Source of the DNA: a virus
Length of the DNA: 64,000 nucleotides
Reading direction: 5' to 3' (one strand)
Virus genome (UHGV): UHGV-0090440
The notes below the pieces were generated by a model, which saw only the letters and a program-made list of their open reading frames with translations, made no database searches and was not told the DNA's origin. The stretch's first letter is position 1, and each line of letters opens with the position of its first letter. Made by a program: the position numbers and the translations under genes. This document shows, in pieces, positions 10,594 through 33,018 of this stretch.

Positions 10594-10680
10594 TGGCGGA
10601 GAGTAATGGAATCGAACCATCATCGCTTGCGCAATGGGACGGTTTTCAAGACCGCTTGAGCACCATGCTCCCTACTCTCC
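10594..10680 (-). tRNA. tRNA-Ser(UGA)-like, atypical; possible pseudogene
   Basis: 87 nt: perfect 7-bp acceptor GGAGAGT/ACTCTCC, T-arm GATGG-TTCGATT-CCATT, anticodon stem-loop GCGGT-CTTGAAA-ACCGT (anticodon TGA), 17-nt variable arm, encoded CCA; but A at position 8 and a short D-loop. Hand-folded only. Confidence 0.4.
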
Positions 10681-10802
10681 AATTGTTGTGGTTACCGGTA
10701 CTGATCTCCGGCTTAGCGACCCCGGCTACTGACTGCATTGCAGTGTGTGAACTCGCCTCGTGTGTCGCTGGGGCATTTCTTTCCGCGCATCAGTCTGCGC
10801 AT

Positions 10803-10882
10803 CAACCACAACGGAAAGAGCATTGGCTAACCAGGCTCGCCGACTCTTCACGATTATCGGCCCAATGCTCTTACCTGTTGTG
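10803..10882 (-). ncRNA. structured element, family member E3
   Basis: Arms CAACCACAACGGAAAGAGCATTGG / CCCAATGCTCTTACCTGTTGTG with a 34-nt insert. Confidence 0.3.
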
Positions 10883-11061
10883 CGCTCCGTTTCGTGGAGC
10901 TAACGGCGGGTGATCGGGCCGCACCAGACTGGACTTATTTCAGCGTTATGCTCATGCCAGAGAATCAAACTGTGATGGTCGGTGCTGAACTCCGACACAG
11001 GGTTGTAGCAAGCCCCGCAAAGCGCGCACTACTGTAGTTGCGGCACATCAGCCTGTGCATT

Positions 11062-11161
11062 CACCACAATGTTGAGAACACTGGTTGTCACGCTGCCTCG
11101 CGACCTTTATTCATAGATTGGGATATGACCCCGTTACGCCAATGTTCTCAACGTTGTAGTG
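11062..11161 (-). ncRNA. structured element, family member E4
   Basis: Arms CACCACAATGTTGAGAACACTGG / CCAATGTTCTCAACGTTGTAGTG; insert contains an AGGCAG-loop hairpin. Confidence 0.3.
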
Positions 11162-11297
11162 CCGGTTACGGTTCCGGCCAGGCTTCTTCCTCAACGGGGT
11201 GTTCTCCATACGGACTACCGTTTATTGGTCGTTCCTGCGGTTTATGTTGTGAAGCCAGATGCTTATCTTCTGGTTGCTTCAAAGAGCTGCACTTCAT

Positions 11298-11384
11298 CAC
11301 AACGGTAAGGGTACTTCGTAGGGATTCGAACCCTCTGCCAAGCTCGGCGATCTCCGACGTCGCAAAATACCCTTACCTGTTGTG
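11298..11384 (-). ncRNA. tRNA-like element E5 (no anticodon arm)
   Basis: 16-bp stem CACAACGGTAAGGGTA/TACCCTTACCTGTTGTG enclosing a D-arm-like hairpin (GCGA-CGTCGGAGA-TCGC) and a T-arm-like hairpin (GAGGG-TTCGAAT-CCCTA); starts 2 nt after the tRNA-Thr 3' end. Confidence 0.35.
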
Positions 11385-11385
11385 T

Positions 11386-11461
11386 TGGTGCCGGTTAACG
11401 GACTCGAACCGCTGACATCCTGCTTACAAGGCAGGCGCTCTACCAACTGAGCTAAACCGGC
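11386..11461 (-). tRNA. tRNA-Thr (anticodon UGU)
   Basis: 76 nt: acceptor GCCGGTT/AACCGGC, D-arm GCTCAGTTGGTAGAGC, anticodon loop CTTGTAA, T-loop TTCGAGT, encoded CCA. Confidence 0.9.
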
Positions 11462-11465
11462 AATT

Positions 11466-11552
11466 TGGTGGGGAGTGATGGAGTCGAACCACCCGAGTCG
11501 CAATGACAGTAGATTTACAGTCTACCCCGCTGCCCCTACGGACTAACTCCCC
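11466..11552 (-). tRNA. tRNA-Tyr (anticodon GUA), type II
   Basis: 87 nt: acceptor GGGGAGT/ACTCCCC, anticodon stem-loop GTAGA-CTGTAAA-TCTAC, long variable arm, T-loop TTCGACT, encoded CCA. Confidence 0.8.
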
Positions 11553-11557
11553 TAAAT

Positions 11558-11632
11558 TGGCGATGGTGGGTGGATTCGAACCACCGACCAGTTGGTTAAC
11601 AGCCAACTGCTCTACCGCTGAGCTACACCATC
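11558..11632 (-). tRNA. tRNA-Asn (anticodon GUU)
   Basis: 75 nt: acceptor GATGGTG/CACCATC, D-arm GCTCAGCGGTAGAGC, anticodon loop CTGTTAA, T-loop TTCGAAT, encoded CCA. Confidence 0.9.
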
Positions 11633-15327: not shown

Positions 15328-15582
15328 TTATATTTTATCCTGTTCGGATAATTCTTTGATTGTCTTGTCGATTGCGATCAACCAACCTTCATAGGTTAAA
15401 TCATCAACAAGTTCTACCAACTTATCATCGGTGTGAGGAAAGTATATCCAGCTCCAGTTCGCCGGGTTTTCTGCTTTTCGCAGCGTAAAAACCTTCTTGT
15501 ATCGGTGGAACTCAAGGACATACCCCTTCGATATGGAATATCCCTTTAGGTCTTCGACCGTAAACCTACGATTCTTTCGCAT
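15328..15582 (-). CDS. hypothetical protein
   Basis: 84-aa ORF, 3 bp downstream of the 144-aa ORF. Confidence 0.45.
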   Translation of the reverse strand: MRKNRRFTVEDLKGYSISKGYVLEFHRYKKVFTLRKAENPANWSWIYFPHTDDKLVELVDDLTYEGWLIAIDKTIKELSEQDKI

Positions 15583-15584
15583 GG

Positions 15585-16019
15585 CTACCCCATGATTCGA
15601 TATTTCTCTACAGACTCGTCGTAACTTGTGTACACGTATGGCTCTGTATCATCGGCATAAGGTGCGACTTCCAGAGCATGAACAGGATTGTATACCGCGT
15701 CATTTTCCAGGCGATCGCTCGAATACAGATGCCCAGCCAAAACCGTAAGCGCCGGGCGACTCATTTTGTAGATCTCTGCCACATCACTATCTACAACTTG
15801 TCCAAATGATATGTCGCCGCGCTCCAGCAATAACGTTTTAAGCGCAGGCCACCACGGCCCATAAAGGTGATAAAGCTGTGGATCTCGTTTCAGCCTTTCC
15901 ACCATGCCATTCAGATATGCATCCAGAAATGCCTCTTCACTCCTGCCATTGAGCGCCTGCGGCAAAATGTCCTCAAGGTAGGATTCCGTTGGTTTTACTG
16001 TGTCGATCAATGTTGTCAT
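15585..16019 (-). CDS. hypothetical protein
   Basis: 144-aa acidic ORF immediately downstream of darB. Confidence 0.5.
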   Translation of the reverse strand: MTTLIDTVKPTESYLEDILPQALNGRSEEAFLDAYLNGMVERLKRDPQLYHLYGPWWPALKTLLLERGDISFGQVVDSDVAEIYKMSRPALTVLAGHLYSSDRLENDAVYNPVHALEVAPYADDTEPYVYTSYDESVEKYRIMG

Positions 16020-16055
16020 TTTAATTCGGCCTCTTTCGAGGCCGCTCCATATCTG

Positions 16056-19000
16056 TTAAGCCGCCGCTTCAATGATTTTACGCACTTCATCAATTGAATA
16101 GCGCGTCGATACCATCCAGGCCGGACGGTCAAAGTCCACATCGGCAACCGGGTTAACTTCGAAGTTCCAGAAACGCCCACCGATTTTCTTGATGGCATCT
16201 TTTGCGTTGCGAATAGATGAAGATCCGGGCATATCTGCAATGAGATAAACAGCACCAGCGTCTTCACTTACGCTCCACCAGCGACCGCGGACACGTGCTT
16301 TGGCGCGAATAGGCTTATCGTTTACCACGATAATGTAATCATCATTTGCTGCCTCGTCAGCCTTGTTCTCAGCAGCATCAGCCTGTTCTTCCCGTTCAGT
16401 CTTAGCCGCCGCAAGACGTTCAGCAATCTCTGACTCCGTAGCGCCACTATTTTTAAGCGACACAAAGTCATCCCACGTTGCAGATTTCAGAGCATCAGGC
16501 AACTCTTCCACATACCCGCCCGCTTTTAAGGCGTTAGCATGGCGTATAGCCATCCCGACAAGACGATTCAAGCTATCTGCATCTGCGAAATCATCACGGG
16601 TAATGCTTTTATCCTCAAATGCATGAATTAACGCCCCCGCTTTAATCCAGACTGTTGCAGATGTTTCAAGCGGATTATCGGCATTAGAAATGCTTAGTTG
16701 CGCACTGTAAACTGACTGACCTGCCAACGAGGCAAGTGACGCCCAACCATCTGCATCACTTTGCATTTTGTACTGATCAAACAGCGCATCACGCCATGCA
16801 TTTAGCGCCATGCGTGTTTTCTCAATTTTGGTTGTGATTTTGGACGTTCGCAGTTGTTCGAACATCTGCGAAATCTCTGAACCATTGGTGAAGGCTTTCA
16901 TGCGCCCCTGGAAATCGCGGAAAGAAAGCACGCCTCGCCAGTACGTTTCCAGGCCTTCTCCATTTGGCTTGCGGAACAAGCTGCGGACATCTTCCTGAGT
17001 CACTTTTTCAAGTGAACGCCCGGAGAGATCGCGCCCTGCCATCCAGCCATCGAACGCCTTGACCACATCATCCATAGTGGCCTGAGCGCCCCATGCCTCC
17101 ATACCTTGCTCATAATCGAAGCCAAACAATGCACGGAGAAAACCTTCTGCCTCTGAAATACGAAGTGGGTTATCACCTGTCTGGATTTTCGCGACTTCGC
17201 GTTTTAATGCTTCGTCGTTTACATCAGGATAAATCCATTGTTCAGGTGCTATCTCGTCACTTCCAGATGCGCTAATTTTTTGACCAATCATCCCGCCATA
17301 GGTAAAGGCCATTTGAATCTGACCATTGGCGTTACGATAAGCCCAATAGTTTACATCCGGTGCTCCTTGCCAACCGCCACGATCTCTCCCAGTTACCCGC
17401 ATAACACCGCTACGAATAGCGTCATAGAATTGATCGCGAGAAAGAGAGGTTGAAAGCTGGTGGCTTTGAACACCACGTGCCGCTATTTCTCGTGATTCAG
17501 CCACCCCCTCTTCAAATGTTACCGCTTCAACCACTGAGTCAAACGGTAATGTCATGGTTGAGCCAGGAGAACGAGAGTGGCGACTTGCTCTATCCAGCCA
17601 GGCGACGCGGCAGGTGTATTGCGCTTTTTCGCCCTCAATTTGTGTCACGCGTACAATCGCCGTTGTCTCGTATTCAGCATCAATGACTGCACGGTAGTAA
17701 CTACCTTTATGCAACAGGATGTTCTTGCCAGTGCGCATATACTCCTGCGGGTTCTGAATAACATCGATACTGATATCCAGCACACCAGACTTAATAGCAC
17801 GCTCCACATCACCACGAGAGCGTTTCATAACAGTATCCGCGTCCTTCGCCCTGGTGATTGCAAATCGCAATTCACGCACTCTTTTTTTAGCTTTGCTTAG
17901 TGCTGAAAGCGTATATTTCTGTCCGTTTTTGTTGGTGCCGCTCTTAATCAGTCCATCCAGATCACTCTGGTATCGTTGCGCCTGCTCCATCGCGCTTTTC
18001 AGTTCTGCCTCCATCATGCCGATATCCTTCCCGGCAGCATTCGCCGCTTTCAGGTAGTTATCGAGAGCATTATTGGCTTCGCGTTGCGCTTTAAGTCGCA
18101 GGCGTTCCTCACGTTCTTTCGACTGACGAGCCATAATTGCGCGTCGTTCTTCCGGATTTGCCGCCAGCATAATGGCGCGTTCATCAGCGTCATCCGCATC
18201 ACCATTGGCGATCTCTGACATATCGGAGGTCATCACCATCTTGATCCAGTCTTTCTTACGTTTAAGCGTATCCAGACGGAAGTCATCGAATGTGCCTTTG
18301 CCACAATAATAGTGAACATTAACCTTCTCTTGCGGAGAACCTACGCGCGCACCGCGCCCATTTCGTTGGTCGATACTGGCAGGAGTCCAGGGTAGTGTCA
18401 GGTGGTGAATATCGGTCGTTCCAATATGCAGGTTGATACCTACTTCGGCTTTCTTGTTACAGATAATGATCCGCGTGCGCCCTTCGTTATAGTCGGCAGC
18501 AATACCTTCCATCCCCTCAAGGCCAGCATCATTTTTAGCAGAGAGATAATCCTCATATTGGGCCAGTTTACTGTAGTAGGTTTCCCATGCGCCTTCTTTG
18601 TATTCACCGTCTTTGTTTGGCGTCGGTTCGGTCGGTTTTTTGACCTTTTTCAGCTTAACACCACCAGCCTGGCTAACAGTCGTAGCATTGATAATGCCTA
18701 TCTCCTGCTCTGACATTTGCAACGCACTGGCAATGATGCGACGTAGTTTCTGGTGCTGGGCTTTCTCGTCGATAAAGATAATTTGCTTACCGTTCTTAAG
18801 CCCTTCACGAAGGTTCTCGATAAGTGCGGCATACTTAGGCGGGATCGGGTGTGACACCTGTTTCATGTCGATGCCTGCATCAGCAATTGCCTTGAGTATT
18901 TCAGCCTCCAGGTCAATGCTGGCACGCAATTCGACGTGATTTGGATGCTCACTAAATGTTGTAGCTACAACCTTGCTGGTACGGGTACTGACCAGGCCTC

Positions 19001-22000
19001 CGGTCGCATCCTCCTCTGCTTCTTCTGCATCGTCTGCCGCTTTCCCACCAGCCACTTTTGGTAGGTTATTAGCTATAGACTTCACCTGTTCAGTAAGCTC
19101 TACAGGGAACTGGAATGTGATAGCGCTGGCGTAAAGATCCGGGTCGATAGCGACCTTATCCATGTCGCGAATGATAGAGAAAATGAAATCATCCGGTTTC
19201 TCGCGAGTGATATTGCCTTCATCATCGACAGTGACGTCATCACCACGACTTAACTCCTGCGCGCGTTTACGAAGCTCTTCATAAGCTGCTTGCTGCTCTG
19301 GAGTCATTGGGATCTGCAAGGTGTTTTCGACGATATCCGGGATTTTTACCGTTGCACCAACATCGGAAGCCGTTTTAAGCGTTGTCCAGCGGTGGAAAAT
19401 GCCACGCAGACCATCAAGGTTCTGGAAGCCCACCAGCCCCTGTTTCTCTTCCACTTCGCCAGAAATTTTCTGGACCTGAACAGTGGCTGTTTTACCGAAC
19501 ACTCGCACAAAGTCGTCAGGGGTAATAATCCCCATGTGCATCCACTCGTGCTGAGGGATCACCGTTGACAGCATGTTGAAGGCGTCAATAGGGCTATTAA
19601 CCAGCGGAGTTGCTGTCAGCATTACGACGCCGCGCCCATTGTGACGTTTCATCATGTACGCAGCTTTTACAGCCATGTCACGGGCCATTTTGGATACCGC
19701 CGGATTAGGTAAATATGCCAGTTGCCCCGCTTCACGCCCGGCACCAAAGGAGTTGCGGTAGTTGTGCCCTTCGTCGGCAATTACGCTATCGAAGTTCATA
19801 TCCTCAAAGTACGGGATATTCTGCTTCTTCGCTGTACCGGTATTCGCGGCCTGGTCCTTAATCTTGTTCTTCTTCTGCGCATCACGGTGCTTGCCTGACG
19901 CCAGGTCAAGACGCCCCATTTCGGCGGCATTAAAGACAGCCTGCTGTGAGTTTTCTCCGATGGTTTCATCGCGCAACGGGATAGATGCGAACTGCTCTTT
20001 TGTCATGATGACCGTTCGCCAGTTCGACGATGGGATCATGTTCATGCGTTGAGCGATAACGGCACTGGCGGATTCTTTAACAACATTACGGGTGATCGGA
20101 TTGCCGTCGTTATCAAGTCGCGGGGTGCCGTCCTGGTCGAGCACTGGGGCAGTCTGAATATTTCCGTCACCATCGCGCACTTCGTCCAGACCGATAAACA
20201 TCATATTGGCGAAGGCATCTGCACTGTAGAAGCTCTGTGCCTCGTGATACCAGTTCTGGTATACGGCCTTTGGAACAACGATACAGGTACGTTTGGTTCG
20301 CCCGGTTTCAAAGTTATAGGCTTCCAGTGCCAGCGCGGTCGTCGTTTTACCCAAACCAGTTCCGAATCCCATAATCCCGCGCCCATCTTCCGACAGACGA
20401 CGAACTTCTTCGTTCTGGTAAGAAAGCGGTATACGTTTCCCGCTGATGCCTTCAAGCCCCAGGGGTGCGTCTGAATGGGTAAATGGAATATAACCGTTAA
20501 AGGCGTCGTTATAATCGCGGGCGATCTGGTCTGCCTGCGGGTGAGTTCTTAACCAGTCGTTAAAACTCGTCTCAAGCTGGGCGATTTTGTCCAGGTACTC
20601 GTTAGCGTTCTGTCCGCGCGGTTTAACACCGTTCAGGTAGTTCTCAAGCTGATTCAGGAAGCCATCTTTGTTATTCGCTTTCTTGAACTCGTTCCCGTTT
20701 TTGCCGTTTACGGTTCGTAGTTGATAGCCAGTAAATACCCCGTCCTTACCTTCGTAATCGTCCGGGGATACCAGAATGCCGTTCTCAACCTTAAGGTCGG
20801 GTTCTGTATACTTAAACTCGTCATAGCCCTGCTCTGCCAGGAACTCTTTTATCAGGCGGCGATCCAACCACCGTGCGTTAAGGTTTACCGTGACTTTGTT
20901 CAGCGGTGTAAACGTGCGTTTCTCTTCGATTTTTGAAAGCTGGCGCTCAAAGTTGGCCTTCCGCTCTCCTGTGGACGCGTCTCGCCAGCCCACCAGCAGT
21001 GCCACTTTTGATTTAATATCACCGCTGGTGGCACGGCCCATCGGTAGCAGGCAACCATATCCATCAATAGCGATATCGTCGAATTTCGCCAGGTATTCCA
21101 GTGCTTGATCGTCGTCTTCTGGCAGTTCGCCTTTAAACGCCTCGCGGAAGTCATCAAGATTGATAGGATTAAGGGCAACATCGCTGAAAAGGTGTGTCAC
21201 AACCTGTTCCGGACGAGTGAAATCAATACCAGCAGCCCCTTTGCTAACATCAAGCCGTCCGGACAGCAGATCGGATGCTTCACCGTCCTGATTGACGTTC
21301 CCGGTAAATGTCAGCCAGTTCTTCGCGCCCGCTTCGGTAATGTCGTTTAGCTTAATGGCGTGTGGTGGGCCATATTTAGCAACTTCGGCAGCCGTCAGAC
21401 GTGCGGCATCAGCCAGTTCATCATCGACGTTTTCACCAAGGTTACGCTTATCCAGCGCTTTATTGATAAGTTGCCCGATCAGCGCACCGCGCATAATGCG
21501 CTCACGGTCTTTTTCGCGTTGTTTCCCAGCAAAGCGAATCATTGCCGCTACTTCATCACTGATAACCGATGGATAGTCGGAAGCGATCGCGGATATCTGC
21601 CCCCATGACAGAGCCAGAATGCCGTTTGTTGATTGGAACGTTGTTTGCAGATCACCGAATGTCGAAACACCATATCGGCTTACATCAAGTACGGAGGATT
21701 TGGTTGTCGCATCTTTAACCCATTGCAGGCCATCAAACTCGTGCCAGATGCCACCTACAAGGCGCTTGTCTCCTACTTTGGCGCCCTGCCATGCCTGAGT
21801 AGTTACGCCAAGCAAATCCCAATTAATGCGGCTTTCAAAGCGGCGTGATAGCGCGGTTTTCATCGACTCATTGGATACACGACCGTCCTTTTTCACCACC
21901 AGAGTATTGCGGAAGCTGGTACGTTCCATGTCGCCGTAAACAAATCGCTTCCCTTCGGTTGTAAACCATTTTCCTTTGAGGAAGGTATCCCAAAGGACGT

Positions 22001-22973
22001 TTGCCGATTTGAGTGTTGAATCATCCGTGTCGGGGATCATCTCCAGGAAGGTTTCCGGGTGTTTACGCAATACCCATACGTCCACCACGGTATCTGTACC
22101 GGATTCGCTGAACGTACCGGAAGGCATACGATGTGCGCCCAAAAATTCCGCTTTACGGCTGACTTTATCGCGCAATTTTTTATATTTCGTACCATCGGTC
22201 ATGCCATTCGGCACCACCAATACGATAAGCCCACCAGGCTTAACCTTGTCGATCGTGCGCAGCACAAAGTAATTGCCAACGTTCTTCTCGTTTGCATATG
22301 CCGGATCAAGCCCGGCGACACCGGAACGCCCTTCACCAAACGGTACGTTACCAACAGCGTGATCATACATTGCGTCTTTCGCCGCCAGCGCCTCAAACGC
22401 CCCGATATTCACATCGTCTTCCGGGTGCAAAAGCTGGTTTATTCGACCGGAAATCGGAGACAGTTCGGCGCTGGTCATTATCATGCCCTGTCGTTTTGTC
22501 TCCTGGAAAATACCTGTGCCCGCTGATGGTTCCAGTACGTGCCCGCCATCAATACCGTAGTCAGCAAACAGATCCCATATACCTTCAGCCATAAACTGTG
22601 GCGTGTAGTATTCGTATTGGCTGCCCTCACCATCTGTCAGGCCGCCTTCACCGGTATACCCGGCAAGAATCTGACGCTGTTCGTCAGTTAATTTCGCCCC
22701 ATCGAAGCCGGGCGGAAGGGAATTAAGAAGCTCTACTGCGGCGTTGTTTGCTGCCCGCCGTGTTTTTTGAATACTGACACCATCGACTTTCTTAACGCCA
22801 AAGGTCGCAACAGCACGTAATTTATGCAACCGGCTAACAATCTCAATCAGTTCGCCTAAGCTGGAGGCTTCACTGATTGAATGAAGTAGTTTATCCAAAG
22901 GATTACCCCCTCTAAACCGTAAAAAATCCGCTATGCGGTACGGTTGAGAGGGTATGGAGAATGTTATTTTCAC
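16056..22973 (-). CDS. darB: DarB-like antirestriction protein (N6-adenine methyltransferase fused to DExH/SNF2-type helicase)
   Basis: 2305 aa; MTase motifs VLEPSAGTGIF (SAM-binding) and NVPFG; helicase motifs GTGLGKT (Walker A), ADEGHNYRN (DEGH), LTATPLVNSP, QRNGRGARVG (motif VI). Size and architecture match P1 DarB as recalled. Confidence 0.85.
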   Translation of the reverse strand: MKITFSIPSQPYRIADFLRFRGGNPLDKLLHSISEASSLGELIEIVSRLHKLRAVATFGVKKVDGVSIQKTRRAANNAAVELLNSLPPGFDGAKLTDEQRQILAGYTGEGGLTDGEGSQYEYYTPQFMAEGIWDLFADYGIDGGHVLEPSAGTGIFQETKRQGMIMTSAELSPISGRINQLLHPEDDVNIGAFEALAAKDAMYDHAVGNVPFGEGRSGVAGLDPAYANEKNVGNYFVLRTIDKVKPGGLIVLVVPNGMTDGTKYKKLRDKVSRKAEFLGAHRMPSGTFSESGTDTVVDVWVLRKHPETFLEMIPDTDDSTLKSANVLWDTFLKGKWFTTEGKRFVYGDMERTSFRNTLVVKKDGRVSNESMKTALSRRFESRINWDLLGVTTQAWQGAKVGDKRLVGGIWHEFDGLQWVKDATTKSSVLDVSRYGVSTFGDLQTTFQSTNGILALSWGQISAIASDYPSVISDEVAAMIRFAGKQREKDRERIMRGALIGQLINKALDKRNLGENVDDELADAARLTAAEVAKYGPPHAIKLNDITEAGAKNWLTFTGNVNQDGEASDLLSGRLDVSKGAAGIDFTRPEQVVTHLFSDVALNPINLDDFREAFKGELPEDDDQALEYLAKFDDIAIDGYGCLLPMGRATSGDIKSKVALLVGWRDASTGERKANFERQLSKIEEKRTFTPLNKVTVNLNARWLDRRLIKEFLAEQGYDEFKYTEPDLKVENGILVSPDDYEGKDGVFTGYQLRTVNGKNGNEFKKANNKDGFLNQLENYLNGVKPRGQNANEYLDKIAQLETSFNDWLRTHPQADQIARDYNDAFNGYIPFTHSDAPLGLEGISGKRIPLSYQNEEVRRLSEDGRGIMGFGTGLGKTTTALALEAYNFETGRTKRTCIVVPKAVYQNWYHEAQSFYSADAFANMMFIGLDEVRDGDGNIQTAPVLDQDGTPRLDNDGNPITRNVVKESASAVIAQRMNMIPSSNWRTVIMTKEQFASIPLRDETIGENSQQAVFNAAEMGRLDLASGKHRDAQKKNKIKDQAANTGTAKKQNIPYFEDMNFDSVIADEGHNYRNSFGAGREAGQLAYLPNPAVSKMARDMAVKAAYMMKRHNGRGVVMLTATPLVNSPIDAFNMLSTVIPQHEWMHMGIITPDDFVRVFGKTATVQVQKISGEVEEKQGLVGFQNLDGLRGIFHRWTTLKTASDVGATVKIPDIVENTLQIPMTPEQQAAYEELRKRAQELSRGDDVTVDDEGNITREKPDDFIFSIIRDMDKVAIDPDLYASAITFQFPVELTEQVKSIANNLPKVAGGKAADDAEEAEEDATGGLVSTRTSKVVATTFSEHPNHVELRASIDLEAEILKAIADAGIDMKQVSHPIPPKYAALIENLREGLKNGKQIIFIDEKAQHQKLRRIIASALQMSEQEIGIINATTVSQAGGVKLKKVKKPTEPTPNKDGEYKEGAWETYYSKLAQYEDYLSAKNDAGLEGMEGIAADYNEGRTRIIICNKKAEVGINLHIGTTDIHHLTLPWTPASIDQRNGRGARVGSPQEKVNVHYYCGKGTFDDFRLDTLKRKKDWIKMVMTSDMSEIANGDADDADERAIMLAANPEERRAIMARQSKEREERLRLKAQREANNALDNYLKAANAAGKDIGMMEAELKSAMEQAQRYQSDLDGLIKSGTNKNGQKYTLSALSKAKKRVRELRFAITRAKDADTVMKRSRGDVERAIKSGVLDISIDVIQNPQEYMRTGKNILLHKGSYYRAVIDAEYETTAIVRVTQIEGEKAQYTCRVAWLDRASRHSRSPGSTMTLPFDSVVEAVTFEEGVAESREIAARGVQSHQLSTSLSRDQFYDAIRSGVMRVTGRDRGGWQGAPDVNYWAYRNANGQIQMAFTYGGMIGQKISASGSDEIAPEQWIYPDVNDEALKREVAKIQTGDNPLRISEAEGFLRALFGFDYEQGMEAWGAQATMDDVVKAFDGWMAGRDLSGRSLEKVTQEDVRSLFRKPNGEGLETYWRGVLSFRDFQGRMKAFTNGSEISQMFEQLRTSKITTKIEKTRMALNAWRDALFDQYKMQSDADGWASLASLAGQSVYSAQLSISNADNPLETSATVWIKAGALIHAFEDKSITRDDFADADSLNRLVGMAIRHANALKAGGYVEELPDALKSATWDDFVSLKNSGATESEIAERLAAAKTEREEQADAAENKADEAANDDYIIVVNDKPIRAKARVRGRWWSVSEDAGAVYLIADMPGSSSIRNAKDAIKKIGGRFWNFEVNPVADVDFDRPAWMVSTRYSIDEVRKIIEAAA

Positions 22974-23534: not shown

Positions 23535-23539
23535 AAAAA

Positions 23540-23558
23540 GCCCCGACCAGGCCGGGGC
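23540..23558 (-). terminator. intrinsic terminator (minus strand)
   Basis: Minus strand reads GCCCCG-GCCTGGT-CGGGGC followed by TTTTTT; abuts the CHAP stop codon. Confidence 0.45.
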
Positions 23559-24190
23559 ATCACGCTTCAAGTCACGATCCAATCATTACCGACTATATCA
23601 GCCGTCGATAAATCAACTTCCCGGATCTGGAGTCCATCAGTGTGCCTCCGCAATGCTGGGATTGGTAATATTGCGATACCAGGGATTAGTGTTTGGTTGT
23701 GGGGAAGTAGAGAAACGACCAGTAAGAACACCATACTGATCAGGGATCAGAGAACGGGCTTCTTTTTCGGTTGCGGCAATTGCGAAGTGATCGCAGTGTT
23801 TTTGCAGGGAGTGGAAACGCCAGATGAATTCTGGACGTGAGCAAGGATTGGCATTAACCATAGTTACGGCCTCACTAACAGGTTTAACAACCTGCTACCC
23901 GCTGTCAAACAGGTGGCAGGACGTGACAGGGTTGACAGACTGGCGTTAGTGAAACCAGCAGGCCGAAGCCTCCCCATCACGCCCCACCATAATTCGGGCG
24001 TAACGCGATTTACGGACACAAAAATACCGCAATATCGGAAATCTGCGGTTGTCCGCACTAACATTCAGGCTGTCAAACCTGGTCGCAGAATTTGCTACGA
24101 CGGCATTAATATAAGCCTGAAAACATGGAAGATCAACTAAAAATTTCAGCAATGGATGACTTCAGTCGATGATGCAGATCATACATTCCG

Positions 24191-24220
24191 ATTTAGAAAC
24201 AGGAAATTAATTTTCTAATA
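24191..24220. promoter_or_regulatory. pair of inverted motif copies (ATTTAGAAACAGGA weak; TATTAGAAAATTAA strong on minus)
   Basis: TTAGAAA and TTTCTAA half-sites 8 bp apart in the 700-bp non-coding gap between the CHAP gene and the 320-aa gene. Confidence 0.35.
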
Positions 24221-24274
24221 CAAATCATCGAGCGAGCATTTGCCGATCATTGGGAAGTTTTGTAGGCACACAGG

Positions 24275-25237
24275 TCATCCCCTAAATCCCGCAGGGATTG
24301 ACCAATCCTCCCGGTCAAATTCAGACCGATAGCCACGCTGTTTCATCAGGTCAAAGGCTTCACCAATGGTTGCACACCCCTGGGAGCCAGAATAATCCAT
24401 TGAGAAATCCAGGACACTGGATTGTTTAGGCTTATTCACTGCGGTAGCGGCACTACGTATCCATGCAAATTTTTTTGCCAGCTTTTCAGCGGTACGATAC
24501 AGAGCCTGCCGTTTTGCGTGCCCCTCGTCTGAACGACGCTTTGCAGCTCTCGCTTTTGCCGCCGCCAGGCAGCGGTTGGTATGTTCTTCCCTGATTACTG
24601 GTTTTTTATCCAGCGCCCCATTATCCGCTTGAGAACTATCTGCTGGTGAAGCCTTTGGCTGAACCGCGCATGATCTTTCTCTTCTTTTTGCTATAGAGTG
24701 ACTCTTATTTTCTATTGGCTGTTCATTTTGAACATGGGGGGACTTGTTCAAAATGAACAGGGGGTTCCCAGTTTCAAAAAAATAACGAACCTTTGAAATC
24801 AACTGCTTAACCAGTTTTGTGGCGTTGGCAAATTTGATGCCCTGCTTACCCCCTATCTCCATTGCTGCATGAATGAAGTGGAGAAATTGTGTCGTAAACC
24901 GATATACGTTACACACCTGGGCATTGTTATTCGCTACCTGATGTTGCCTAACAAGCATTCCGCACTTCGTCGCTTCAGCAAATGCCCGGCGTACAGTAGA
25001 AATACTGCGTCCTGTAATCTCGGACATATCAGCATATGAGCGACGGATCATGTATTCATCGGTAGCCCCTGCCAGGTTGGCGAACTCGGCAATAATAGCG
25101 CTATGTGAAGGGGAAAGAAGACCGCTATGACGAGCAAAAAAACTCAACTGATGACCTTTGATTTTTTTGTGGTATTCAGTGTTGTTTTTATACTCAGAAG
25201 TGTTGAAAGTTACTGAAACTGAATTTAAAATATTCAT
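24275..25237 (-). CDS. HTH-containing protein with basic C-terminal half; candidate replication or regulatory protein
   Basis: 320 aa; probable HTH (MSEITGRSISTVRRAFAEATKCGML), Lys/Arg-rich C-terminal region; coding sequence carries two 15-bp palindromes. Confidence 0.55.
   Translation of the reverse strand: MNILNSVSVTFNTSEYKNNTEYHKKIKGHQLSFFARHSGLLSPSHSAIIAEFANLAGATDEYMIRRSYADMSEITGRSISTVRRAFAEATKCGMLVRQHQVANNNAQVCNVYRFTTQFLHFIHAAMEIGGKQGIKFANATKLVKQLISKVRYFFETGNPLFILNKSPHVQNEQPIENKSHSIAKRRERSCAVQPKASPADSSQADNGALDKKPVIREEHTNRCLAAAKARAAKRRSDEGHAKRQALYRTAEKLAKKFAWIRSAATAVNKPKQSSVLDFSMDYSGSQGCATIGEAFDLMKQRGYRSEFDREDWSIPAGFRG
24720..24764. repeat. tandem pair of palindromes TGTTCA-N3-TGAACA each followed by a G-run
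   Basis: TGTTCATTTTGAACAtgggggg (24720-24741) and TGTTCAAAATGAACAggggg (24745-24764) inside the 320-aa ORF. Confidence 0.45.
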
Positions 25238-28196: not shown

Positions 28197-29582
28197 TTAG
28201 TTTTCTGTACGGCAATTATTTGGAACTGTAGAATTTTCAAACATAGCAAAGTTCAGACCTTTCCCTTCGCCAAATTCACCCTCAATCTCATCGGAAACGG
28301 CAGACAAAATGCTACGCAGATCGACATCTCCGCCGCCGAACATATCGCCTAACGCTTGTTGCTGGTGAATAAGCTCATCGTTAATTTTTTGCGCCAGTTT
28401 CTTGAAAGCGGCCCCCATACGCTTAGCGCTTCTGTTGTTGGCAACAATAAACAGAGCAAGCGCTTCCGCTTCCGGAGTGCTATCTCCAAACAATCCACGC
28501 TGTGCGATCACCTCTTCTACTGCCTGACCGTTATCTTTTGCTTCACGAACAAGGTTAATTGCTTCCTGTAGCGCGGCAATAGCCTGTTTATCCAGACCAT
28601 TCAATTGCTCTATGCCGTCTACCAGTCCGGTTACCGTGTCATGGTGAACATCGCCTGAAAGTGACTGCATTTGCGCAAAATCGCTGGCTGCCGTATTTAA
28701 TGCGGTAAGGATGTTACGCATTTCCGGATCTGGCTCTTCCGCCACCAGCCGAACAAGCCTTTCATCCTTGTACGCTTTGGCAAAAATTGCATTCTGGATG
28801 CGGTCGATAAGTTGTTTCGTTGGACGCCCATCGGCAGTAAGCAAACCTGCCGTCGCCGTATCACCTATTTCGCGCAAAAACGCACGAATAAACGCATCAT
28901 TGGACCGCGCCAGTAGATTTCCATCATCTGAAGGATTAAATAGCGCCATGACGCTCTCAGTGAGAAATTGCGCATCCGCATACGCTTTTTCACTTGCAGC
29001 CATCTCTTGCAGATCGCTGATGTTTGAATCGCGGGCAAATTGAGCGCGGTCTACATCTGTGAGTCTTTCTCGCACCAGTACGGGCATAGACATTTGCGAA
29101 ATTTCGTCAGGATTCAGACCAAACTCTTTCGCATGGTCGATCAGGTACTGGCGATATTCATCCGCCTGCCCTTGCTCATAGGCACGCCAGATACCCATGC
29201 TCCTTCCGTTGCCGGATTCAACAACGTTGTCCGGACCAACTATCGGCGCTCCGTGGCTGCTCATGCCGGAATCCGTTAATTGTGCCGGGCGTAAATTGGA
29301 GGCAATACGGTTAACCTGGAGTTTGCTTGATAGCCGTGTACGGTCACGTGGCTGGAGTTCTTCCGGGAAGGCCGGATTAATCGTACCGTCAAGGTTGTTC
29401 GAAATGATCAGACTGCTGGCATCAACGACCTTAAAAGCCGTCTTTACCTCTGCCCCTTTACTGGTGACTACGTAACTACTGCGCCCCTGGCGTGTTTCTC
29501 GCCTCTCTAATGAAGAAACCAGCGCAATAACACTGTTAATGTCTGCTGCTTCGGATAGCGCGGAAGTAACTGACTTGTTCAA
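28197..29582 (-). CDS. hypothetical virion-associated protein
   Basis: 461-aa ORF in the same operon. Confidence 0.5.
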   Translation of the reverse strand: MNKSVTSALSEAADINSVIALVSSLERRETRQGRSSYVVTSKGAEVKTAFKVVDASSLIISNNLDGTINPAFPEELQPRDRTRLSSKLQVNRIASNLRPAQLTDSGMSSHGAPIVGPDNVVESGNGRSMGIWRAYEQGQADEYRQYLIDHAKEFGLNPDEISQMSMPVLVRERLTDVDRAQFARDSNISDLQEMAASEKAYADAQFLTESVMALFNPSDDGNLLARSNDAFIRAFLREIGDTATAGLLTADGRPTKQLIDRIQNAIFAKAYKDERLVRLVAEEPDPEMRNILTALNTAASDFAQMQSLSGDVHHDTVTGLVDGIEQLNGLDKQAIAALQEAINLVREAKDNGQAVEEVIAQRGLFGDSTPEAEALALFIVANNRSAKRMGAAFKKLAQKINDELIHQQQALGDMFGGGDVDLRSILSAVSDEIEGEFGEGKGLNFAMFENSTVPNNCRTEN

Positions 29583-29675: not shown

Positions 29676-30044
29676 TTAGCCTGCATAACCGTTGGCTTTC
29701 ACCCAGCTTATGGTCTGCTCTTTAGCCTGTTCCAACGTAAGGAACTCGCCTACATAGTTTGAGATCCCACGTAGCGCATCAATAAATTCCATTTGTGTGG
29801 ACTTTGTGAACACACCGCCCAGGAAGTCAGTCACTATCTTAGGGACTTCATCTACAACAGGATCAGTCTGTTGTTGCGGTTCCGCTGCCGGTTGCGCGGC
29901 AGTCCCCAGGCCCAATTTCAGCATCACATCAACAATCTGCTTACCAATGGTGACGCGTTGCAATACTGGCGCAGTTTTCTGCGCCTGCATTAGATCTGAT
30001 AGCTCTTTACCTAATTTCAGGCGGTCTAAAACAGAGATGGTCAT
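29676..30044 (-). CDS. hypothetical protein
   Basis: 122-aa ORF overlapping the upstream gene stop by 1 nt. Confidence 0.45.
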   Translation of the reverse strand: MTISVLDRLKLGKELSDLMQAQKTAPVLQRVTIGKQIVDVMLKLGLGTAAQPAAEPQQQTDPVVDEVPKIVTDFLGGVFTKSTQMEFIDALRGISNYVGEFLTLEQAKEQTISWVKANGYAG

Positions 30045-31969
30045 TAAGCACCTCCCTGCTGAATTTCAGCCAGAATGTTGATCAGGTAGTCAACTGCTGC
30101 ACCCACAGTGGCTTCGTTCTCGTCGTATCGACCTGCACTGATTAGAGCATTTGCTGCTTCCTGTACATGATCAAGTTCAGTACTGATGACCGTCAGATCG
30201 CGGGATGTAAACTGCTCCGGCACGGATTTCAGGTACTCCAGCGCTTTATCTGCCTCCTGATCAGCTTCACTTGCTGATTCACCCGCTTCTTCTGGCTCCG
30301 GCTCCTGTTCTGGTGCTGGTTGTGGTTGTGATTCTGGCTCAACCACATGCTCTGTTTTTACTTCGCTTGAATAATTTTGAAGGGCGTTATACACGTCCAT
30401 AATGAAAAGGTTCTCCCCATCACCAAGTGGATACGCCACGTTTGGAAACGCTTTGCGGAAAAGAATTTTCACTTGCGCCTTGAATGTTTTCAGGTCACTG
30501 CCAAACAGGTCCACATAGCCATCAATATGTTTAGACATGCTGGACACAACCAATTGGCCTGCAAAATCTTTCAGCTCATCTTCATCAGGAAGATAGAGCA
30601 ACTCGTACTGGCTGACTTCTTTATCTGTCAGTTTACGGTCATACGTAATGATACCGTGACGAGCATATCCGTAATACTGATCAGCCTGGTCAGGACGATC
30701 AAGCACGGCTTTATTTCCATCCGGCACAGCACCAACACCAGCCGGGCGAGATTGAAGTGCATAGTGGTATTTACCTACATCTTGGCTCTCTGGTTGTGAT
30801 ACTGGGTTCGTCTCGGGGGCTGTCTGTGGTGGTTCGGAGTCTTCCTGCTGGCCTGGTAACACATCAACTTTATATTTATCTGCGTTATGCTCTCGGTAGG
30901 CTTTAAGTAATTTGGTTGCAGCATCTGCCAAACTGCCTCCTTTGACAGCACTGGCATCAATACTGAATTTACCTTCAGGTGCTACTATCGTAACGAAATT
31001 GTCACTGCCGGACGTGACATAATTAACTTCAGCGCCATTATCCAGCACTGTTTTTCCGTCAATGGCAAGATTATGTTTTACATGTCGCAGCTGGTCACTA
31101 AACGCTCGCTCCTTCGTTTTTTCACCTTTAGCAGACAACAATTTATCGCGTTTTTCTTGTAATTCCTCGTTGATGGCTTTCTGGGCATCAAGTTTTTTTT
31201 GCATCTCCGTAAGAGCAGCACGCTTTTCAGTCAGCCCACGTTGCGCAACGTCCACCTGATCAATTGTTATTGACCGTTCTTCTGCCAGTTTATCTGCTTC
31301 ATTGAGATAACTCTCAATATCTGCCTTCATTTTGTCCTGGCGCTCTTTTGCTTTCTTAAATTTTTCGCTGTTACGCTCAATCAAATTAGATAGCGCCTGG
31401 CATACCTGGCTTAAAGAAACATCTCTCCCACCAATCGGGGCGACAACGTGAGTTACGTTACGCTTATTAAGTAAAAACTGAAATGCAACAAGCTCGTCGT
31501 TACTCTTTATTTTTGCCCCGTCAGCTGTTGGAGAGTGGAAAATTATGCTTGTACTCTGCCCGTCAGTAAGCGGTATCTGCGCGGTCAAAACAGGGATATT
31601 AGCTACCCGACGTACACGACCGATAATCGCACCACCAATACAATTACGTCCATTTTCATCGGTCCCGGCTTCATCAGTCCCTGCCATAATATTCGTACCA
31701 TTCAGGCCACGATTCAGCGCACGGACGAAAGCTCGCATTGTTTGAGCTAACCGAATTCTGGTTGTAGTTATGGACTCAAACATAGCTTCGTCAGACACAA
31801 CCAGAATTTCATTGCCCATATAGGCAAGCTCAATATCTTCTAAGGTCGCCGCCTCAAAAATCAGGTCATCTTCGCTTAATTCTTCTGAAGACCAGCGACC
31901 TGGCATATAGCCGGGGATCGTATCAGCAAAAGTAGACTGAATATTAATTCGTAAAGGATTGTTAATCAT
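30044..31969 (-). CDS. large coiled-coil protein in the DarA position (internal head protein candidate)
   Basis: ORF track start 32008; ATG 31969 preferred (GGAGG 6 nt upstream, no overlap with upstream stop), giving 641 aa. P1 DarA is about this size as recalled; assignment is by context and length. Confidence 0.4.
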   Translation of the reverse strand: MINNPLRINIQSTFADTIPGYMPGRWSSEELSEDDLIFEAATLEDIELAYMGNEILVVSDEAMFESITTTRIRLAQTMRAFVRALNRGLNGTNIMAGTDEAGTDENGRNCIGGAIIGRVRRVANIPVLTAQIPLTDGQSTSIIFHSPTADGAKIKSNDELVAFQFLLNKRNVTHVVAPIGGRDVSLSQVCQALSNLIERNSEKFKKAKERQDKMKADIESYLNEADKLAEERSITIDQVDVAQRGLTEKRAALTEMQKKLDAQKAINEELQEKRDKLLSAKGEKTKERAFSDQLRHVKHNLAIDGKTVLDNGAEVNYVTSGSDNFVTIVAPEGKFSIDASAVKGGSLADAATKLLKAYREHNADKYKVDVLPGQQEDSEPPQTAPETNPVSQPESQDVGKYHYALQSRPAGVGAVPDGNKAVLDRPDQADQYYGYARHGIITYDRKLTDKEVSQYELLYLPDEDELKDFAGQLVVSSMSKHIDGYVDLFGSDLKTFKAQVKILFRKAFPNVAYPLGDGENLFIMDVYNALQNYSSEVKTEHVVEPESQPQPAPEQEPEPEEAGESASEADQEADKALEYLKSVPEQFTSRDLTVISTELDHVQEAANALISAGRYDENEATVGAAVDYLINILAEIQQGGA

Positions 31970-32582
31970 GCTCATCCTCCAGGCGCGCGATTTCTTCTTT
32001 AAGAGCACGTGTCTTAGCTACTTCCTGAGACAAGGCAGCTTTAACGTTACCCGTATCTTGCATTACTTTGTCTGACTTGCTCTGGAGTTTAGACAGTTTG
32101 TCGTTAGCATTAGCGATATCTTCACGGAGTGCATCACGTGATTCTTTCGCTTCAGCTAATCTCTGAGCGTTGGATTTAACTCCCTGCCGCTTCTTATTTT
32201 CGTCATCAATATTTTTTGCTGCACGAGCAAGTTTTCGAGCTAATGACTTCTGGAAAGAAGTTGCTCCGCGATTAAATAAAGCCGCAAGAGATTGCCCCAA
32301 AGCCGACATTGTTTTTACTGGCTTGAACGGTACTGTTTTACCATTCAGTTTGATCCCAGATATATCACCGGTATCGTTAACCTGAACTTCCATTGTCTGT
32401 TCATCAAGACCAATAAGGGTAAACGTGCGCGTCATGATCCCATCTTTCTTCCTGCCATTACTTGCAGGGACCACCCTCGCTATCTTGTAACCACCTTTGC
32501 TGATTTCTTTGACGAGTTTTGCCAGCCCCTTTTCGTTTAACTCATCATAATTAAGAAGAACATAATTATTCTTATTTGACAT
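31962..32582 (-). CDS. hypothetical protein
   Basis: ORF track start is GTG 32597; ATG 32582 with AAGGAG 6 nt upstream preferred (206 aa). Confidence 0.5.
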   Translation of the reverse strand: MSNKNNYVLLNYDELNEKGLAKLVKEISKGGYKIARVVPASNGRKKDGIMTRTFTLIGLDEQTMEVQVNDTGDISGIKLNGKTVPFKPVKTMSALGQSLAALFNRGATSFQKSLARKLARAAKNIDDENKKRQGVKSNAQRLAEAKESRDALREDIANANDKLSKLQSKSDKVMQDTGNVKAALSQEVAKTRALKEEIARLEDEHD

Positions 32583-33018
32583 CCCAGTCTCCTTCACGCT
32601 TTTCGATCGTAAACTGGCGCTCTATGCAGTCATTGATAGGGAAAATGCGATAAAGCGGATTCAGTCGGCAGTTACCGTTAGTCAATGTGACTTTCAGATC
32701 CCACTTCGTTGGCTCAAGATATTTCGTATCGATGAGCAAATACTCTTCTCTCTCACCGCGTTTTGAGGCGTCAACTGGTCGCGTTTTCCCTGAAATAACC
32801 ACAGATGGATTTTTCAGGTCTTGCAACCAATATTCGATTTGAGCATTGCTGACCCAGCTTCGCTTAACACGTAGCGAAACAGGAAATGCTATAGCGGATT
32901 CTTTCACTACAGCGTCACCAATACTCAAAATCTCAACACTCTTGCGACGAAAAATGAAACGGTCAATGATGGCAACAAATGCCATGATAAAAATGAAATA
33001 ATTCCCAAAGTTACCCAT
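32572..33018 (-). CDS. membrane-anchored protein (antiholin-position candidate)
   Basis: 148 aa with one N-terminal transmembrane helix; coupled to the upstream 108-aa membrane protein. Confidence 0.35.
   Translation of the reverse strand: MGNFGNYFIFIMAFVAIIDRFIFRRKSVEILSIGDAVVKESAIAFPVSLRVKRSWVSNAQIEYWLQDLKNPSVVISGKTRPVDASKRGEREEYLLIDTKYLEPTKWDLKVTLTNGNCRLNPLYRIFPINDCIERQFTIEKREGDWDVK

Follow-up and report, generated by a model that had tools for sequence, protein, structure and literature searches.

A single long reading frame and its start codon

The 64,000-nucleotide stretch of viral DNA analyzed here (UHGV virus genome UHGV-0090440, referred to below as the window) carries, on the minus strand at positions 16056..22973, a sole ORF that yields 2305 aa when read from GTG. 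A frame of ~2300 codons at 49% GC would stay open by chance with a probability of roughly (61/64)^2305, and its length is far beyond chance expectation. An in-frame TTG at 22898, codon 26 of the maximal ORF, follows a Shine-Dalgarno sequence, and the same start was chosen by the authors of the phage D6 sequence (2278-aa product) and by PGAP on the closest plasmid, NZ_CP091837 (2280-aa product); the product of the gene, which we assign below to darB, is therefore most likely 2280 aa, encoded by 16056..22898, and not 2305 aa. Of the single 2305-aa ORF proposed in the first-pass annotation, the one frame stands and the length should be corrected. Sigma-70 and late-promoter signals were sought upstream of darB, and none exceeded chance.

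16056..22898, minus strand: darB from the likely TTG start, encoding 2280 aa and the stop; the longest ORF begins at the GTG at 22973
22906..22912, minus strand: Shine-Dalgarno sequence GAGGGGG, 7 nt 5' of the TTG start, read directly in the sequence

Two enzymatic modules in one protein

The protein divides into the following segments.

22797..22898, minus strand: residues 1-34, the N-terminal segment where P1 DarB has its capsid-targeting sequence; D6-type allele
22614..22796, minus strand: residues 35-95, helical LPD36-like domain (as described in PMC5512222) with GxGU motif G83-E-G-G86
21909..22613, minus strand: residues 96-330, predicted gamma-class (EcoKI/TaqI-like) N6-adenine DNA methyltransferase domain; TP cap T99-P100, EPSAGTGIF, NVPF
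20439..21908, minus strand: residues 331-820, family-specific mixed alpha/beta linker without Pfam or PDB assignment
19509..20438, minus strand: residues 821-1130, SNF2/DExH ATPase lobe 1; Walker A GTGLGKT, DEGH, TATP; SNF2-rel_dom, ResIII
18549..19508, minus strand: residues 1131-1450, insertion separating the ATPase lobes, from the conservation profile
18204..18548, minus strand: residues 1451-1565, ATPase lobe 2; Helicase_C, motif VI QRNGRGARV
17784..18203, minus strand: residues 1566-1705, long helical hairpin or coiled coil in the AF2 model
16059..17783, minus strand: residues 1706-2280, fast-evolving C-terminal region with a small beta-barrel, a helical domain and a terminal alpha/beta domain

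The presence of methyltransferase and DExH/SNF2 helicase modules in one ORF, claimed from the sequence in the first-pass annotation, was borne out by the HMM domain search suggested there and by the motifs PSAGTGIF, NVPF, GLGKT, DEGH, TATP, and QRNGRGAR. In Pfam, SNF2-rel_dom scored 48.6 bits (cut-off, 24.9), ResIII 24.4 bits (cut-off, 22.5), and Helicase_C 24.1 bits (cut-off, 23.5), while N6_Mtase scored 20.0 bits with the whole protein and 27.1 bits, above its cut-off of 20.4, with the domain scanned alone.

The domain at residues 96 to 330 has motif I (EPSAGTGIF, residues 122-131), motif IV (NVPF, 184-187), and a TP-capped N-terminal helix (EYYTP, 96-100). Its family HMM score exceeds the curated threshold, and its fold is the class I methyltransferase fold seen in DNA N6A enzymes; it is predicted to be a gamma-class N6-adenine DNA methyltransferase. 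Motif IV keeps N184 and P186 without exception, and between them most family sequences have V and 3 of 17 have P (NPPF/Y); NVPF is therefore a family variant of the canonical (N/D)PP(Y/F). The helicase part is a SWI2/SNF2 (SF2, DExH) ATPase, with both lobes above threshold and motifs I, II (DExH), III, and VI present; the residues of its catalytic motifs include K852 in Walker A and D1042/E1043 in DEGH. The insertion between the lobes contains an acidic, low-conservation stretch around residues 1281 to 1320, and helical inserts are typical of the SWI2/SNF2 ATPases of polyvalent proteins (PMC5512222).

In the AF2 models, residues 1 to 34 form two short predicted helices (2-9 and 14-25), and the LPD36-like domain forms helices at 43-60 and 72-79; in the family alignment, G83 is invariant and G85 nearly so (>=90%). 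Residues 1566 to 1705 were modeled as helices with pLDDT of 83 to 95 over most of their length (model residues ~30-145; the first ~30 fall below 80), and their PDB matches are coiled-coil only. Neither Pfam nor PDB gave a match assigning a function to the 490-aa linker, and a fold search with the 575-aa C-terminal region (1706-2280) gave no informative match.

An ortholog of P1 DarB with its accessory genes

The first-pass annotation had also recognized the architecture of P1 DarB, diverged in sequence, and both points are confirmed; as suggested there, the target specificity may differ too. BLASTP against P1 DarB (AAQ13985.1, 2255 aa) gave E = 0, with 869/2001 aligned residues identical (43%) and collinearity from residue 1 of both proteins; a global alignment gave 42.6% over 2170 columns, and the enzyme cores are 55 to 68% identical. 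The two proteins have the same order (LPD36, N6A methyltransferase, linker, SNF2 ATPase, C-terminal region) and identical catalytic motifs, NVPF included. The last ~600 aa are only 10 to 30% identical, the value for residues 1706 to 2280 being 10 to 28%, and the last ~140 aligned columns give a weak but collinear match (E = 0.002). About 10 of the N-terminal ~34 residues are identical, and P1 residues 6 to 10 are not conserved; a targeting signal is therefore not recognizable by sequence here, and the capsid-targeting signal has no known consensus (PMC9024508). Indirect support for such a signal comes from the chimeric makeup of this darB (see below): its N-terminal allele is of D6 type and matches its own D6-type ulx, hdf, and darA. 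PHROG family phrog_1685 matches the protein over its full length with 3391 bits.

As in P1, ulx lies immediately downstream of darB and the Dar partner genes are present elsewhere in the genome.

15585..16019, minus strand: encodes a 144-aa homolog of Ulx, 47% identical to that of P1 (E = 5e-45); 36 nt separate it from darB, which lies upstream
28197..29582, minus strand: ddrB homolog, short form (phrog_2299, profile positions 9-443 of 995)
29676..30044, minus strand: ddrA homolog (phrog_1855, "DdrA-like anti-restriction protein," 4.8e-50)
30044..32008, minus strand: darA homolog (phrog_1926, 1148 bits; 95.6% aa identity to D6)
31962..32597, minus strand: hdf homolog (phrog_1620, "Hdf-like antirestriction," 1.2e-75; 97.6% aa identity to D6)

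PHROG supplied the names Hdf-like, DdrA-like, and Ulx-like (phrog_1629, "Ulx-like anti-restriction," 1.8e-59), while darA and ddrB (phrog_1926 and phrog_2299) were named via the D6 annotation, in which orf27 is "similar to P1 gene darA" and orf25 is "similar to P1 gene ddrB." The short ddrB aligns with the N-terminal half of the profile for the P1-type family, and its product is half the length of P1 DdrB. The surroundings also differ: P1 has prt/pro upstream on the opposite strand and lxc after ulx, whereas here a PG-hydrolase gene lies upstream of darB and an unrelated 84-aa ORF follows ulx.

On these grounds, the protein is almost certainly orthologous to P1 DarB by both position and sequence. 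That the gene is darB of a phage D6-like (P1-family) plasmid prophage is the best explanation as a whole, with a probability of about 0.8. A virion-delivered function against type I restriction is likewise likely by analogy with P1, for which both virion packaging and antirestriction by DarB are known (PMC9024508, PMC12810830).

A very different role, that of a prophage defense enzyme (Type ISP-like, DISARM DrmD-like, or BREX PglX-like) shielding the lysogen from other phages, is highly improbable. All matches to NCBIfam equivalog models of defense-system helicases are confined to the generic helicase lobe and fall far below the cut-offs (DISARM DrmD, 49.3 bits versus 610; Dpd DpdE, 33.7 versus 500; Zorya ZorD, 17.2 versus 1500; Dnd-linked restriction helicase, 27.5 versus 600), Pfam found no nuclease or other effector domain, and partner genes of DISARM, BREX, or Type ISP-like systems are absent next to darB. 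Around darB lie head and Dar genes, including ulx on the downstream side, and the orthologous protein of P1 is part of the virion.

More distant relatives have the enzymatic modules in other settings. The polyvalent-protein methylase-helicase dyad (Iyer et al. 2017, PMC5512222) combines, as here, an LPD36-like GxGU domain, a TP-capped EcoKI/TaqI-like methyltransferase, and a fused SWI2/SNF2 ATPase; examples are giant DarB-like proteins encoded by Bcep22-like and other podophages and by conjugative elements. The tblastn and PHROG matches to polyvalent proteins cover the methyltransferase and helicase parts of DarB, the only two enzyme modules in common (14 to 40% query coverage, 25 to 33% identity), and polyvalent proteins bear different effector domains, lytic transglycosylases for instance. 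HsdM (EcoKI M, StySJI M), TaqI, BsaXI, LlaBIII, MmeI, and PglX are 13 to 20% identical to the protein. Unlike HsdM-type enzymes, DarB has no HsdS-like specificity subunit, recognizable target-recognition domain, or nuclease; its methyltransferase is fused to an SNF2 motor and, judging from P1, would be delivered by the virion.

Constrained cores and a variable C terminus

All catalytic motifs of both enzymes, GTGLGKT, DEGH, TATP, and QRNGRGARV among them, are kept in 15 family representatives at 31 to 55% identity. Invariant positions make up 21% of the enzyme domains versus 0 to 1% of the C-terminal third, and family conservation is highest in ATPase lobe 2 (0.89) and poor in residues 1 to 34 (0.36). 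Both enzymatic cores are thus strongly constrained, with the C-terminal third free to vary. In a search of 1.84 billion proteins, the C-terminal region matched only 39 cluster representatives, and the hits to full-length (>2100 aa) proteins aligned at the equivalent C-terminal position; both this region and the linker are confined to DarB proteins of ~2200 to 2300 aa. The contigs or plasmids on which family members occur, from Aeromonas, Vibrio, and Moritella, measure 57 to 99 kb, a size typical of P1-like elements. Lineage-specific contacts, whether with DNA, a host enzyme, or capsid partners, are probably made by this C-terminal third.

Selection on the protein also bears on a proposal that the antirestriction effect comes from the DNA of darB, whose Chi and type I sites would trigger ClpXP-dependent restriction alleviation. 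Plasmid-borne P1 darB with a premature stop still alleviates EcoKI restriction, via Chi and EcoKI sites (PMC11109961), and darB here has 7 Chi sites, with 30 in the window versus about 1.5 expected. However, the authors considered this alleviation an artefact of the plasmid that can be separated from the phenotype of the phage (PMC11109961), P1 DarB protein is physically present in virions (PMC9024508), and EcoKI, EcoBI, and EcoAI sites are all absent from darB here. The 6.8-kb frame is intact, its catalytic motifs are kept over deep divergence, and purifying selection acts along its entire length (omega 0.10 versus D6). We regard a DNA-level explanation as very unlikely.

Proposed function and mechanism

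P1 DarB has been found in virions by LC-MS/MS at about 40 copies, its first 30 aa are enough to direct a reporter to the capsid, and Ulx aids its localization to the head (PMC9024508). As summarized in PMC11109961, which cites Iida 1987 and Piya 2017, deletion of darB renders P1 sensitive to EcoB and EcoK; Dar acts in cis only (PMC12707154). By homology, the 2280-aa DarB would be produced in lytic growth and directed by its N-terminal ~30 residues into the procapsid, aided by Hdf/DarA, DdrA, DdrB, and Ulx; stored at tens of copies per head, it would enter the cell with the DNA and act in cis on co-arriving DNA, blocking cleavage by EcoK/EcoB-type (family IA) type I enzymes. The most likely mechanism would be a catalytic one. 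The SNF2-type motor would use ATP to move along the entering duplex, and the HsdM-like N6-adenine methyltransferase domain would use SAM to act on adenines in or close to type I target sites, modifying or engaging them ahead of translocation and cutting by the host enzyme. A methylase-translocase model has already been proposed (PMC5512222).

We put a requirement for both enzymatic activities at even odds. Motif IV reads NVPF, not the canonical NPPF/Y, which speaks against the catalytic view, and a sequence-nonspecific adenine methylase would not easily account for protection by P1 DarB against EcoK and EcoB but not EcoA. The same virion-delivered protein could instead be noncatalytic, binding the entering DNA or the restriction complex and hindering type I (and BREX-like) complexes locally as they assemble or translocate. 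Its HsdM-like domain, for example, could serve as a decoy or poison subunit, with a specificity module in the variable C terminus. We consider this rather doubtful: SAM-binding, catalytic, and ATPase motifs kept at 31 to 55% identity are hard to explain if catalysis is dispensable, about 40 copies per virion are too few to coat 90 kb of DNA, and strict cis action (PMC12707154) counts against a freely diffusing inhibitor.

It is also conceivable, if improbable, that the main selected role of DarB lies elsewhere, for instance as an early protein ejected with a role in DNA entry, end protection from RecBCD, establishment or transduction, or the countering of BREX or other defenses, with EcoK/EcoB antirestriction as a side effect. 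The protein is very large, with a 490-aa linker and a 575-aa C-terminal region for which searches gave no functional match; Dar has been reported to act on the BREX system StySA as well (PMC12707154, PMC9009780); and Dar proteins have been linked to head morphogenesis. Nevertheless, EcoB/EcoK sensitivity is the sole genetic phenotype in the literature on P1 darB considered (PMC9024508, PMC11109961), and the head-size phenotypes are due to hdf and darA, not darB.

A chimeric gene body

DarB of D6/P1-type plasmid prophages has already been described and annotated. Phage D6 gp15 (ASR76325.1; 87.6% aa identity) is annotated as "defense against restriction; similar to P1 gene darB," and WP_238059270.1, a "SNF2-related protein" of the D6-like plasmid prophage NZ_CP091837, is 98.7% identical. 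Both have the same length (2278 and 2280 aa, as above), TTG start, and motifs as the protein here, and the order PG-hydrolase gene, darB, ulx, orf13, pmgM/pmgS is common to both loci and the window. The present gene thus adds little, given such annotated homologs and a RefSeq protein 98.7% identical; it has modest value as material for the question, dating from 1987, of how DarB defeats type I restriction. The P1 DarB mechanism is still "not defined" (PMC11109961, PMC9009780).

The only new detail is a swap of the gene body. Codons 1 to 85 and all flanking genes are D6-type (93 to 99% nucleotide identity), codons 85 to 335 are identical to both lineages, and codons ~335 to 2280 are 98 to 100% identical at the nucleotide level to the NZ_CP091837 lineage versus only 55 to 93% to D6.

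16052..21895, minus strand: imported darB segment, codons ~335-2280 (sliding nucleotide identity, dS profile, and flanking gene identities)

The gene is therefore a chimera, with most of its body swapped in from a sister lineage; the phage, plasmid, and E. coli collections contain no record identical to it. Its breakpoints fall close to domain boundaries and put a native N-terminal end before a foreign body, and this arrangement, together with the conservation pattern, suggests a way of separating packaging, catalysis, and specificity. One speculative and on balance unlikely reading is that the C-terminal third and the linker-helicase body form an exchangeable specificity cassette, with the N-terminal ~85 residues as a lineage-specific address label that would have to fit the phage's own packaging partners Ulx/Hdf/DarA. 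Were this so, the cassette would decide which host type I or BREX-like systems DarB neutralizes, and the natural swap, placing the gene body of another lineage in a D6 backbone, would have changed the antirestriction spectrum.

Identity of darB and its genetic context

The gene at 16056..22898 on the minus strand had been proposed in the first-pass annotation to encode a DarB-like methyltransferase-helicase diverged from that of phage P1, and comparison with known proteins bore this out. BLASTP against P1 DarB gave E = 0 (869/2001 identities, both proteins aligned from residue 1), and global alignment gave 42.6% identity, with 55-68% in the enzyme cores and 10-30% over the last ~600 residues; the last ~140 aligned columns form a weak collinear match (E = 0.002). 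The ortholog in Escherichia phage D6, gp15, is annotated "defense against restriction; similar to P1 gene darB" and is 87.6% identical to DarB here, while the protein of the closest plasmid relative, NZ_CP091837, is 98.7% identical. The gene is of an already described kind, annotated in D6 and in more than 100 plasmids.

At the nucleotide level, darB matched D6 over its full length (83% identity) and also 118 plasmids, non-mobilizable or phage-like, from Escherichia, Shigella, and Salmonella, with NZ_CP091837 the closest (98.6%). All darB matches in the 5,426 complete E. coli genomes searched were plasmid-borne, and none was identical. The D6 gene neighborhood is also present here (hdf, darA, ddrA, ddrB, portal, protease, repL, and peptidoglycan hydrolase), and the D6-like order continues through darB, ulx, orf13, pmgM/R/S, tRNAs, lpa, pacAB, and c1. 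These matches and D6-type neighbors identify the window as a D6-like, P1-family plasmid prophage.

Homologs of the other P1 antirestriction genes accompany darB. PHROG profiles carry the names Hdf-, DdrA-, and Ulx-like for three window proteins, and the darA and ddrB open reading frames (ORFs) match phrog_1926 and phrog_2299; their counterparts, D6 orf27 and orf25, are annotated as darA and ddrB homologs. A 144-aa ORF 36 nt downstream of darB is 47% identical to P1 Ulx. The ddrB homolog (28197-29582, minus strand) is only 461 aa long and covers positions 9-443 of a family profile that has 995 positions, so that the D6 lineage has only the N-terminal half of P1-type DdrB. Directly after ulx, where P1 has lxc (bof), lies an 84-aa ORF (15328-15582, minus strand) corresponding to D6 orf13 and phrog_6844; comparison with P1 Lxc revealed no detectable similarity.

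The reading frame of 2,305 codons counted from a GTG (16056..22973, minus strand) stood as first annotated and is uninterrupted, but the 2305-aa product did not. Codon 26 is an in-frame TTG at 22898 with a GAGGGGG Shine-Dalgarno sequence 7 nt upstream, and this start is the one chosen by the D6 authors (ortholog of 2278 aa) and by PGAP on the closest plasmid copy (2280 aa). The product is thus most likely 2280 aa long. Matches to the P1-type late-promoter -22 box (AAGTGACTA, 1 mismatch) numbered 12 versus 11.6 expected, none of them upstream of darB, and a sigma-70 scan returned 8 sites versus 10.4 expected, not above chance; the sole sigma-70 candidate upstream of darB (22993-22966) matches at only 9/12 positions.

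Domain organization and family conservation

The domain search suggested with the original annotation recovered both modules. SNF2-rel_dom scored 48.6 bits in Pfam, ResIII and Helicase_C also exceeded their cutoffs, and N6_Mtase reached 27.1 bits against a cutoff of 20.4 when the domain was scanned on its own. The methyltransferase carries EYYTP (TP cap), EPSAGTGIF (motif I), and NVPF (motif IV), and the ATPase carries GTGLGKT, DEGH, TATP, and QRNGRGARV. The segment 35-95 agrees with LPD36, a domain with a GxGU motif reported in DarB-type proteins (PMC5512222); in the family alignment of this LPD36-like region, G83 is invariant and G85 nearly so. At E ≤ 1, Pfam gave no match in residues 1-73, 331-820 (linker), or 1560-2280, and the linker had no PDB assignment either.

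The C-terminal third appears to be confined to DarB-sized proteins. When 1.84 billion cluster representatives were searched exhaustively with the C-terminal 721 aa, only 39 clusters matched. Of these, 15 were full-length matches (>2100 aa), 2190-2302 aa long and aligned at the same C-terminal position; the others were shorter proteins, probably partial. A homologous-protein search with the same 721 aa returned close fragments only, a profile search of the PDB with the alignment of this region gave only coiled-coil noise, and no recognizable fold was found in this third. All 15 full-length representatives keep every one of the enzyme motifs, although their identity to DarB here is only 31-55%. 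Motif IV is NVPF in most family members and NPPF or NPPY in three, so NVPF represents a family variant rather than decay. Where a source is named, it is Aeromonas, Vibrio, or a Moritella plasmid, and 57- to 99-kb contigs carry many of the family members. Family-wide invariant positions make up 21% of the two enzyme domains versus 0-1% of the C-terminal third.

A methyltransferase-helicase fusion could also be read as a defense enzyme of the DISARM, Type ISP, or BREX kind. We rejected this reading because NCBIfam matches to DrmD, DpdE, ZorD, and Dnd helicase models fell 10- to 90-fold below the cutoffs, no nuclease domain was found in DarB, and the gene sits among virion and Dar genes, the wrong context for such systems.

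Selection and recombinant structure

Pairwise dN/dS between darB and its D6 ortholog was 0.10 overall and reached at most 0.29 in 100-codon sliding windows, its peak falling where substitutions are nearly absent (dS 0.015). No positive selection was detected along darB in this sliding comparison, and the whole frame is thus under purifying selection. Synonymous divergence from D6 shifts abruptly along the gene, and sliding nucleotide identity of the window to D6 and NZ_CP091837 delimited four segments.

Nucleotide identity of the window to D6 and to NZ_CP091837 along the darB region
23050-22646, upstream region and codons 1-85: D6 93-97%, NZ_CP091837 40-81%
22645-21896, codons 85-335 (methyltransferase): D6 99-100%, NZ_CP091837 100%
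21895-16052, codons 335-2280: D6 55-93%, NZ_CP091837 98-100%
below 16050, ulx onward: D6 91-99%, NZ_CP091837 63-85%

Codons 85-335 are 99-100% identical among D6, the plasmid lineage, and the window. For the flanking genes (hdf, darA, prt, pro, repL, PG hydrolase, ulx, orf13, and pmgS), nucleotide identity is 96-99% to D6 but only 70-81% to NZ_CP091837. The D6-type flanks and plasmid-type codons 335-2280 indicate that darB is a natural recombinant: in a D6 backbone, ~5.9 kb of darB has been replaced by the sister-lineage allele. The high C-terminal divergence reflects an old allele together with recombination; adaptive evolution was not detectable.

The breakpoints lie close to domain boundaries and at the end of the gene. 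The N-terminal end of DarB, which in P1 carries the capsid-targeting signal (PMC9024508), is native (D6 type) and was kept alongside native Ulx, Hdf, and DarA, which fits modular function; that the N terminus must match its packaging partners is suggested circumstantially. It seems to us unlikely that the swapped body or C terminus acts as a specificity cassette altering the antirestriction spectrum. Our analysis adds to the known gene a corrected start codon, a domain map, the natural chimera, and a DarB-size-restricted C-terminal third without recognizable fold, none of which would surprise a specialist.

Two observations concern neighboring sequences. Unlike their neighbors, ddrA and ddrB share slightly more nucleotide identity with the plasmid lineage (97.6% and 98.6%) than with D6 (91.9% and 95.2%). 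In NZ_CP091837, an IS200/IS605 tnpA-tnpB pair (18188-19877) lies directly upstream of darB, before the PG-hydrolase gene, whereas the corresponding interval of the window has no insertion.

Likely mechanism

P1 DarB occurs in virions, with roughly 40 copies in each head, and its N-terminal 30 residues are enough to direct a reporter to the capsid (PMC9024508); incorporation depends on other Dar proteins (PMC9024508, PMC12810830). P1 without darB is sensitive to EcoB and EcoK, as reported in PMC11109961, which cites Iida 1987 and Piya 2017. Dar protection is limited to cis action, covering only the DNA of the same virion (PMC12707154). By analogy, we infer that DarB here would share this life history.

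The biochemical mechanism of P1 DarB is explicitly described as "not defined" (PMC11109961, PMC9009780). We favor a catalysis-dependent mechanism because both catalytic centers are strictly conserved over deep divergence. The SNF2 motor would track along the entering duplex, carrying an HsdM-like adenine methyltransferase that would modify or engage adenines in type I targets before the host enzyme can act; such a model combining a SNF2 motor and an adenine methyltransferase was proposed in PMC5512222. The main rival is noncatalytic interference with the restriction complex, which two points favor: P1 protection is restricted to one type I family, and the closest solved relatives of the methyltransferase domain by sequence profile are HsdM subunits. 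It is the conservation of the catalytic residues that inclines us toward catalysis.

In plasmid-based darB assays, Chi and EcoKI sites act as a confounder at the level of DNA (PMC11109961). Chi (GCTGGTGG) is ~20-fold overrepresented in the window (30 sites in 64 kb versus ~1.5 expected), of which 21 lie on the minus strand; darB (16056-22898) contains 7. There are no EcoKI, EcoBI, or EcoAI recognition sites within darB, an absence that is not statistically significant. These counts bear on the plasmid "restriction alleviation" artifact of P1 darB.

Other features of the element

An immI-like region (23535-24275, minus strand) lies between repL and the PG-hydrolase gene and lacks the antirepressor gene (ant) and orf17 found there in D6.

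Features of the immI-like region
23909-23994, minus: C4 antisense RNA (Rfam, 68.8 bits)
24062-24114, minus: a1/b1 target element of C4 RNA
23637-23861, minus: 74-aa ORF, candidate icd counterpart by position and length of D6 icd
23558-23540, minus: strong terminator hairpin

By its position and length, a 191-aa protein (8027-8602, minus strand) seems to correspond to D6 orf6. Its C terminus matches a Tad2-like (Thoeris anti-defense 2-like) domain (PF11195, 39.2 bits versus a cutoff of 25), and its gene may be a second counterdefense gene of the element; in PGAP annotation, the plasmid homolog is called "MW1434 family type I TA system toxin." A cluster of five tRNAs, Met(cat), Ser(tga), Thr(tgt), Tyr(gta), and Asn(gtt), spans 9056-11632 (minus strand), whereas only Asn, Thr, and Ser tRNAs are annotated at the corresponding place in the D6 record.

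The layout of 33450-37629 is similar to that of the P1 invertible C segment, a host-range switch, and an oppositely oriented 200-aa ORF (37027-37629) is a candidate alternative tail-fiber assembly gene. The plasmid maintenance genes are consistent with a plasmid prophage lifestyle.

Further genes of the element
9286-10113: SPFH/Band7 protein, inside the tRNA cluster
33450-34010, plus: Cin-like serine invertase, adjoining the tail-fiber gene
34058-36463: tail fiber, with Gp34_trimer and gp37_C domains
36466-36999: tail-fiber assembly
49832-50620, plus: Rep3-type initiator
61082-62116, plus: ParM actin-like segregation protein
62726-63397, plus: ParA/MinD-like ATPase
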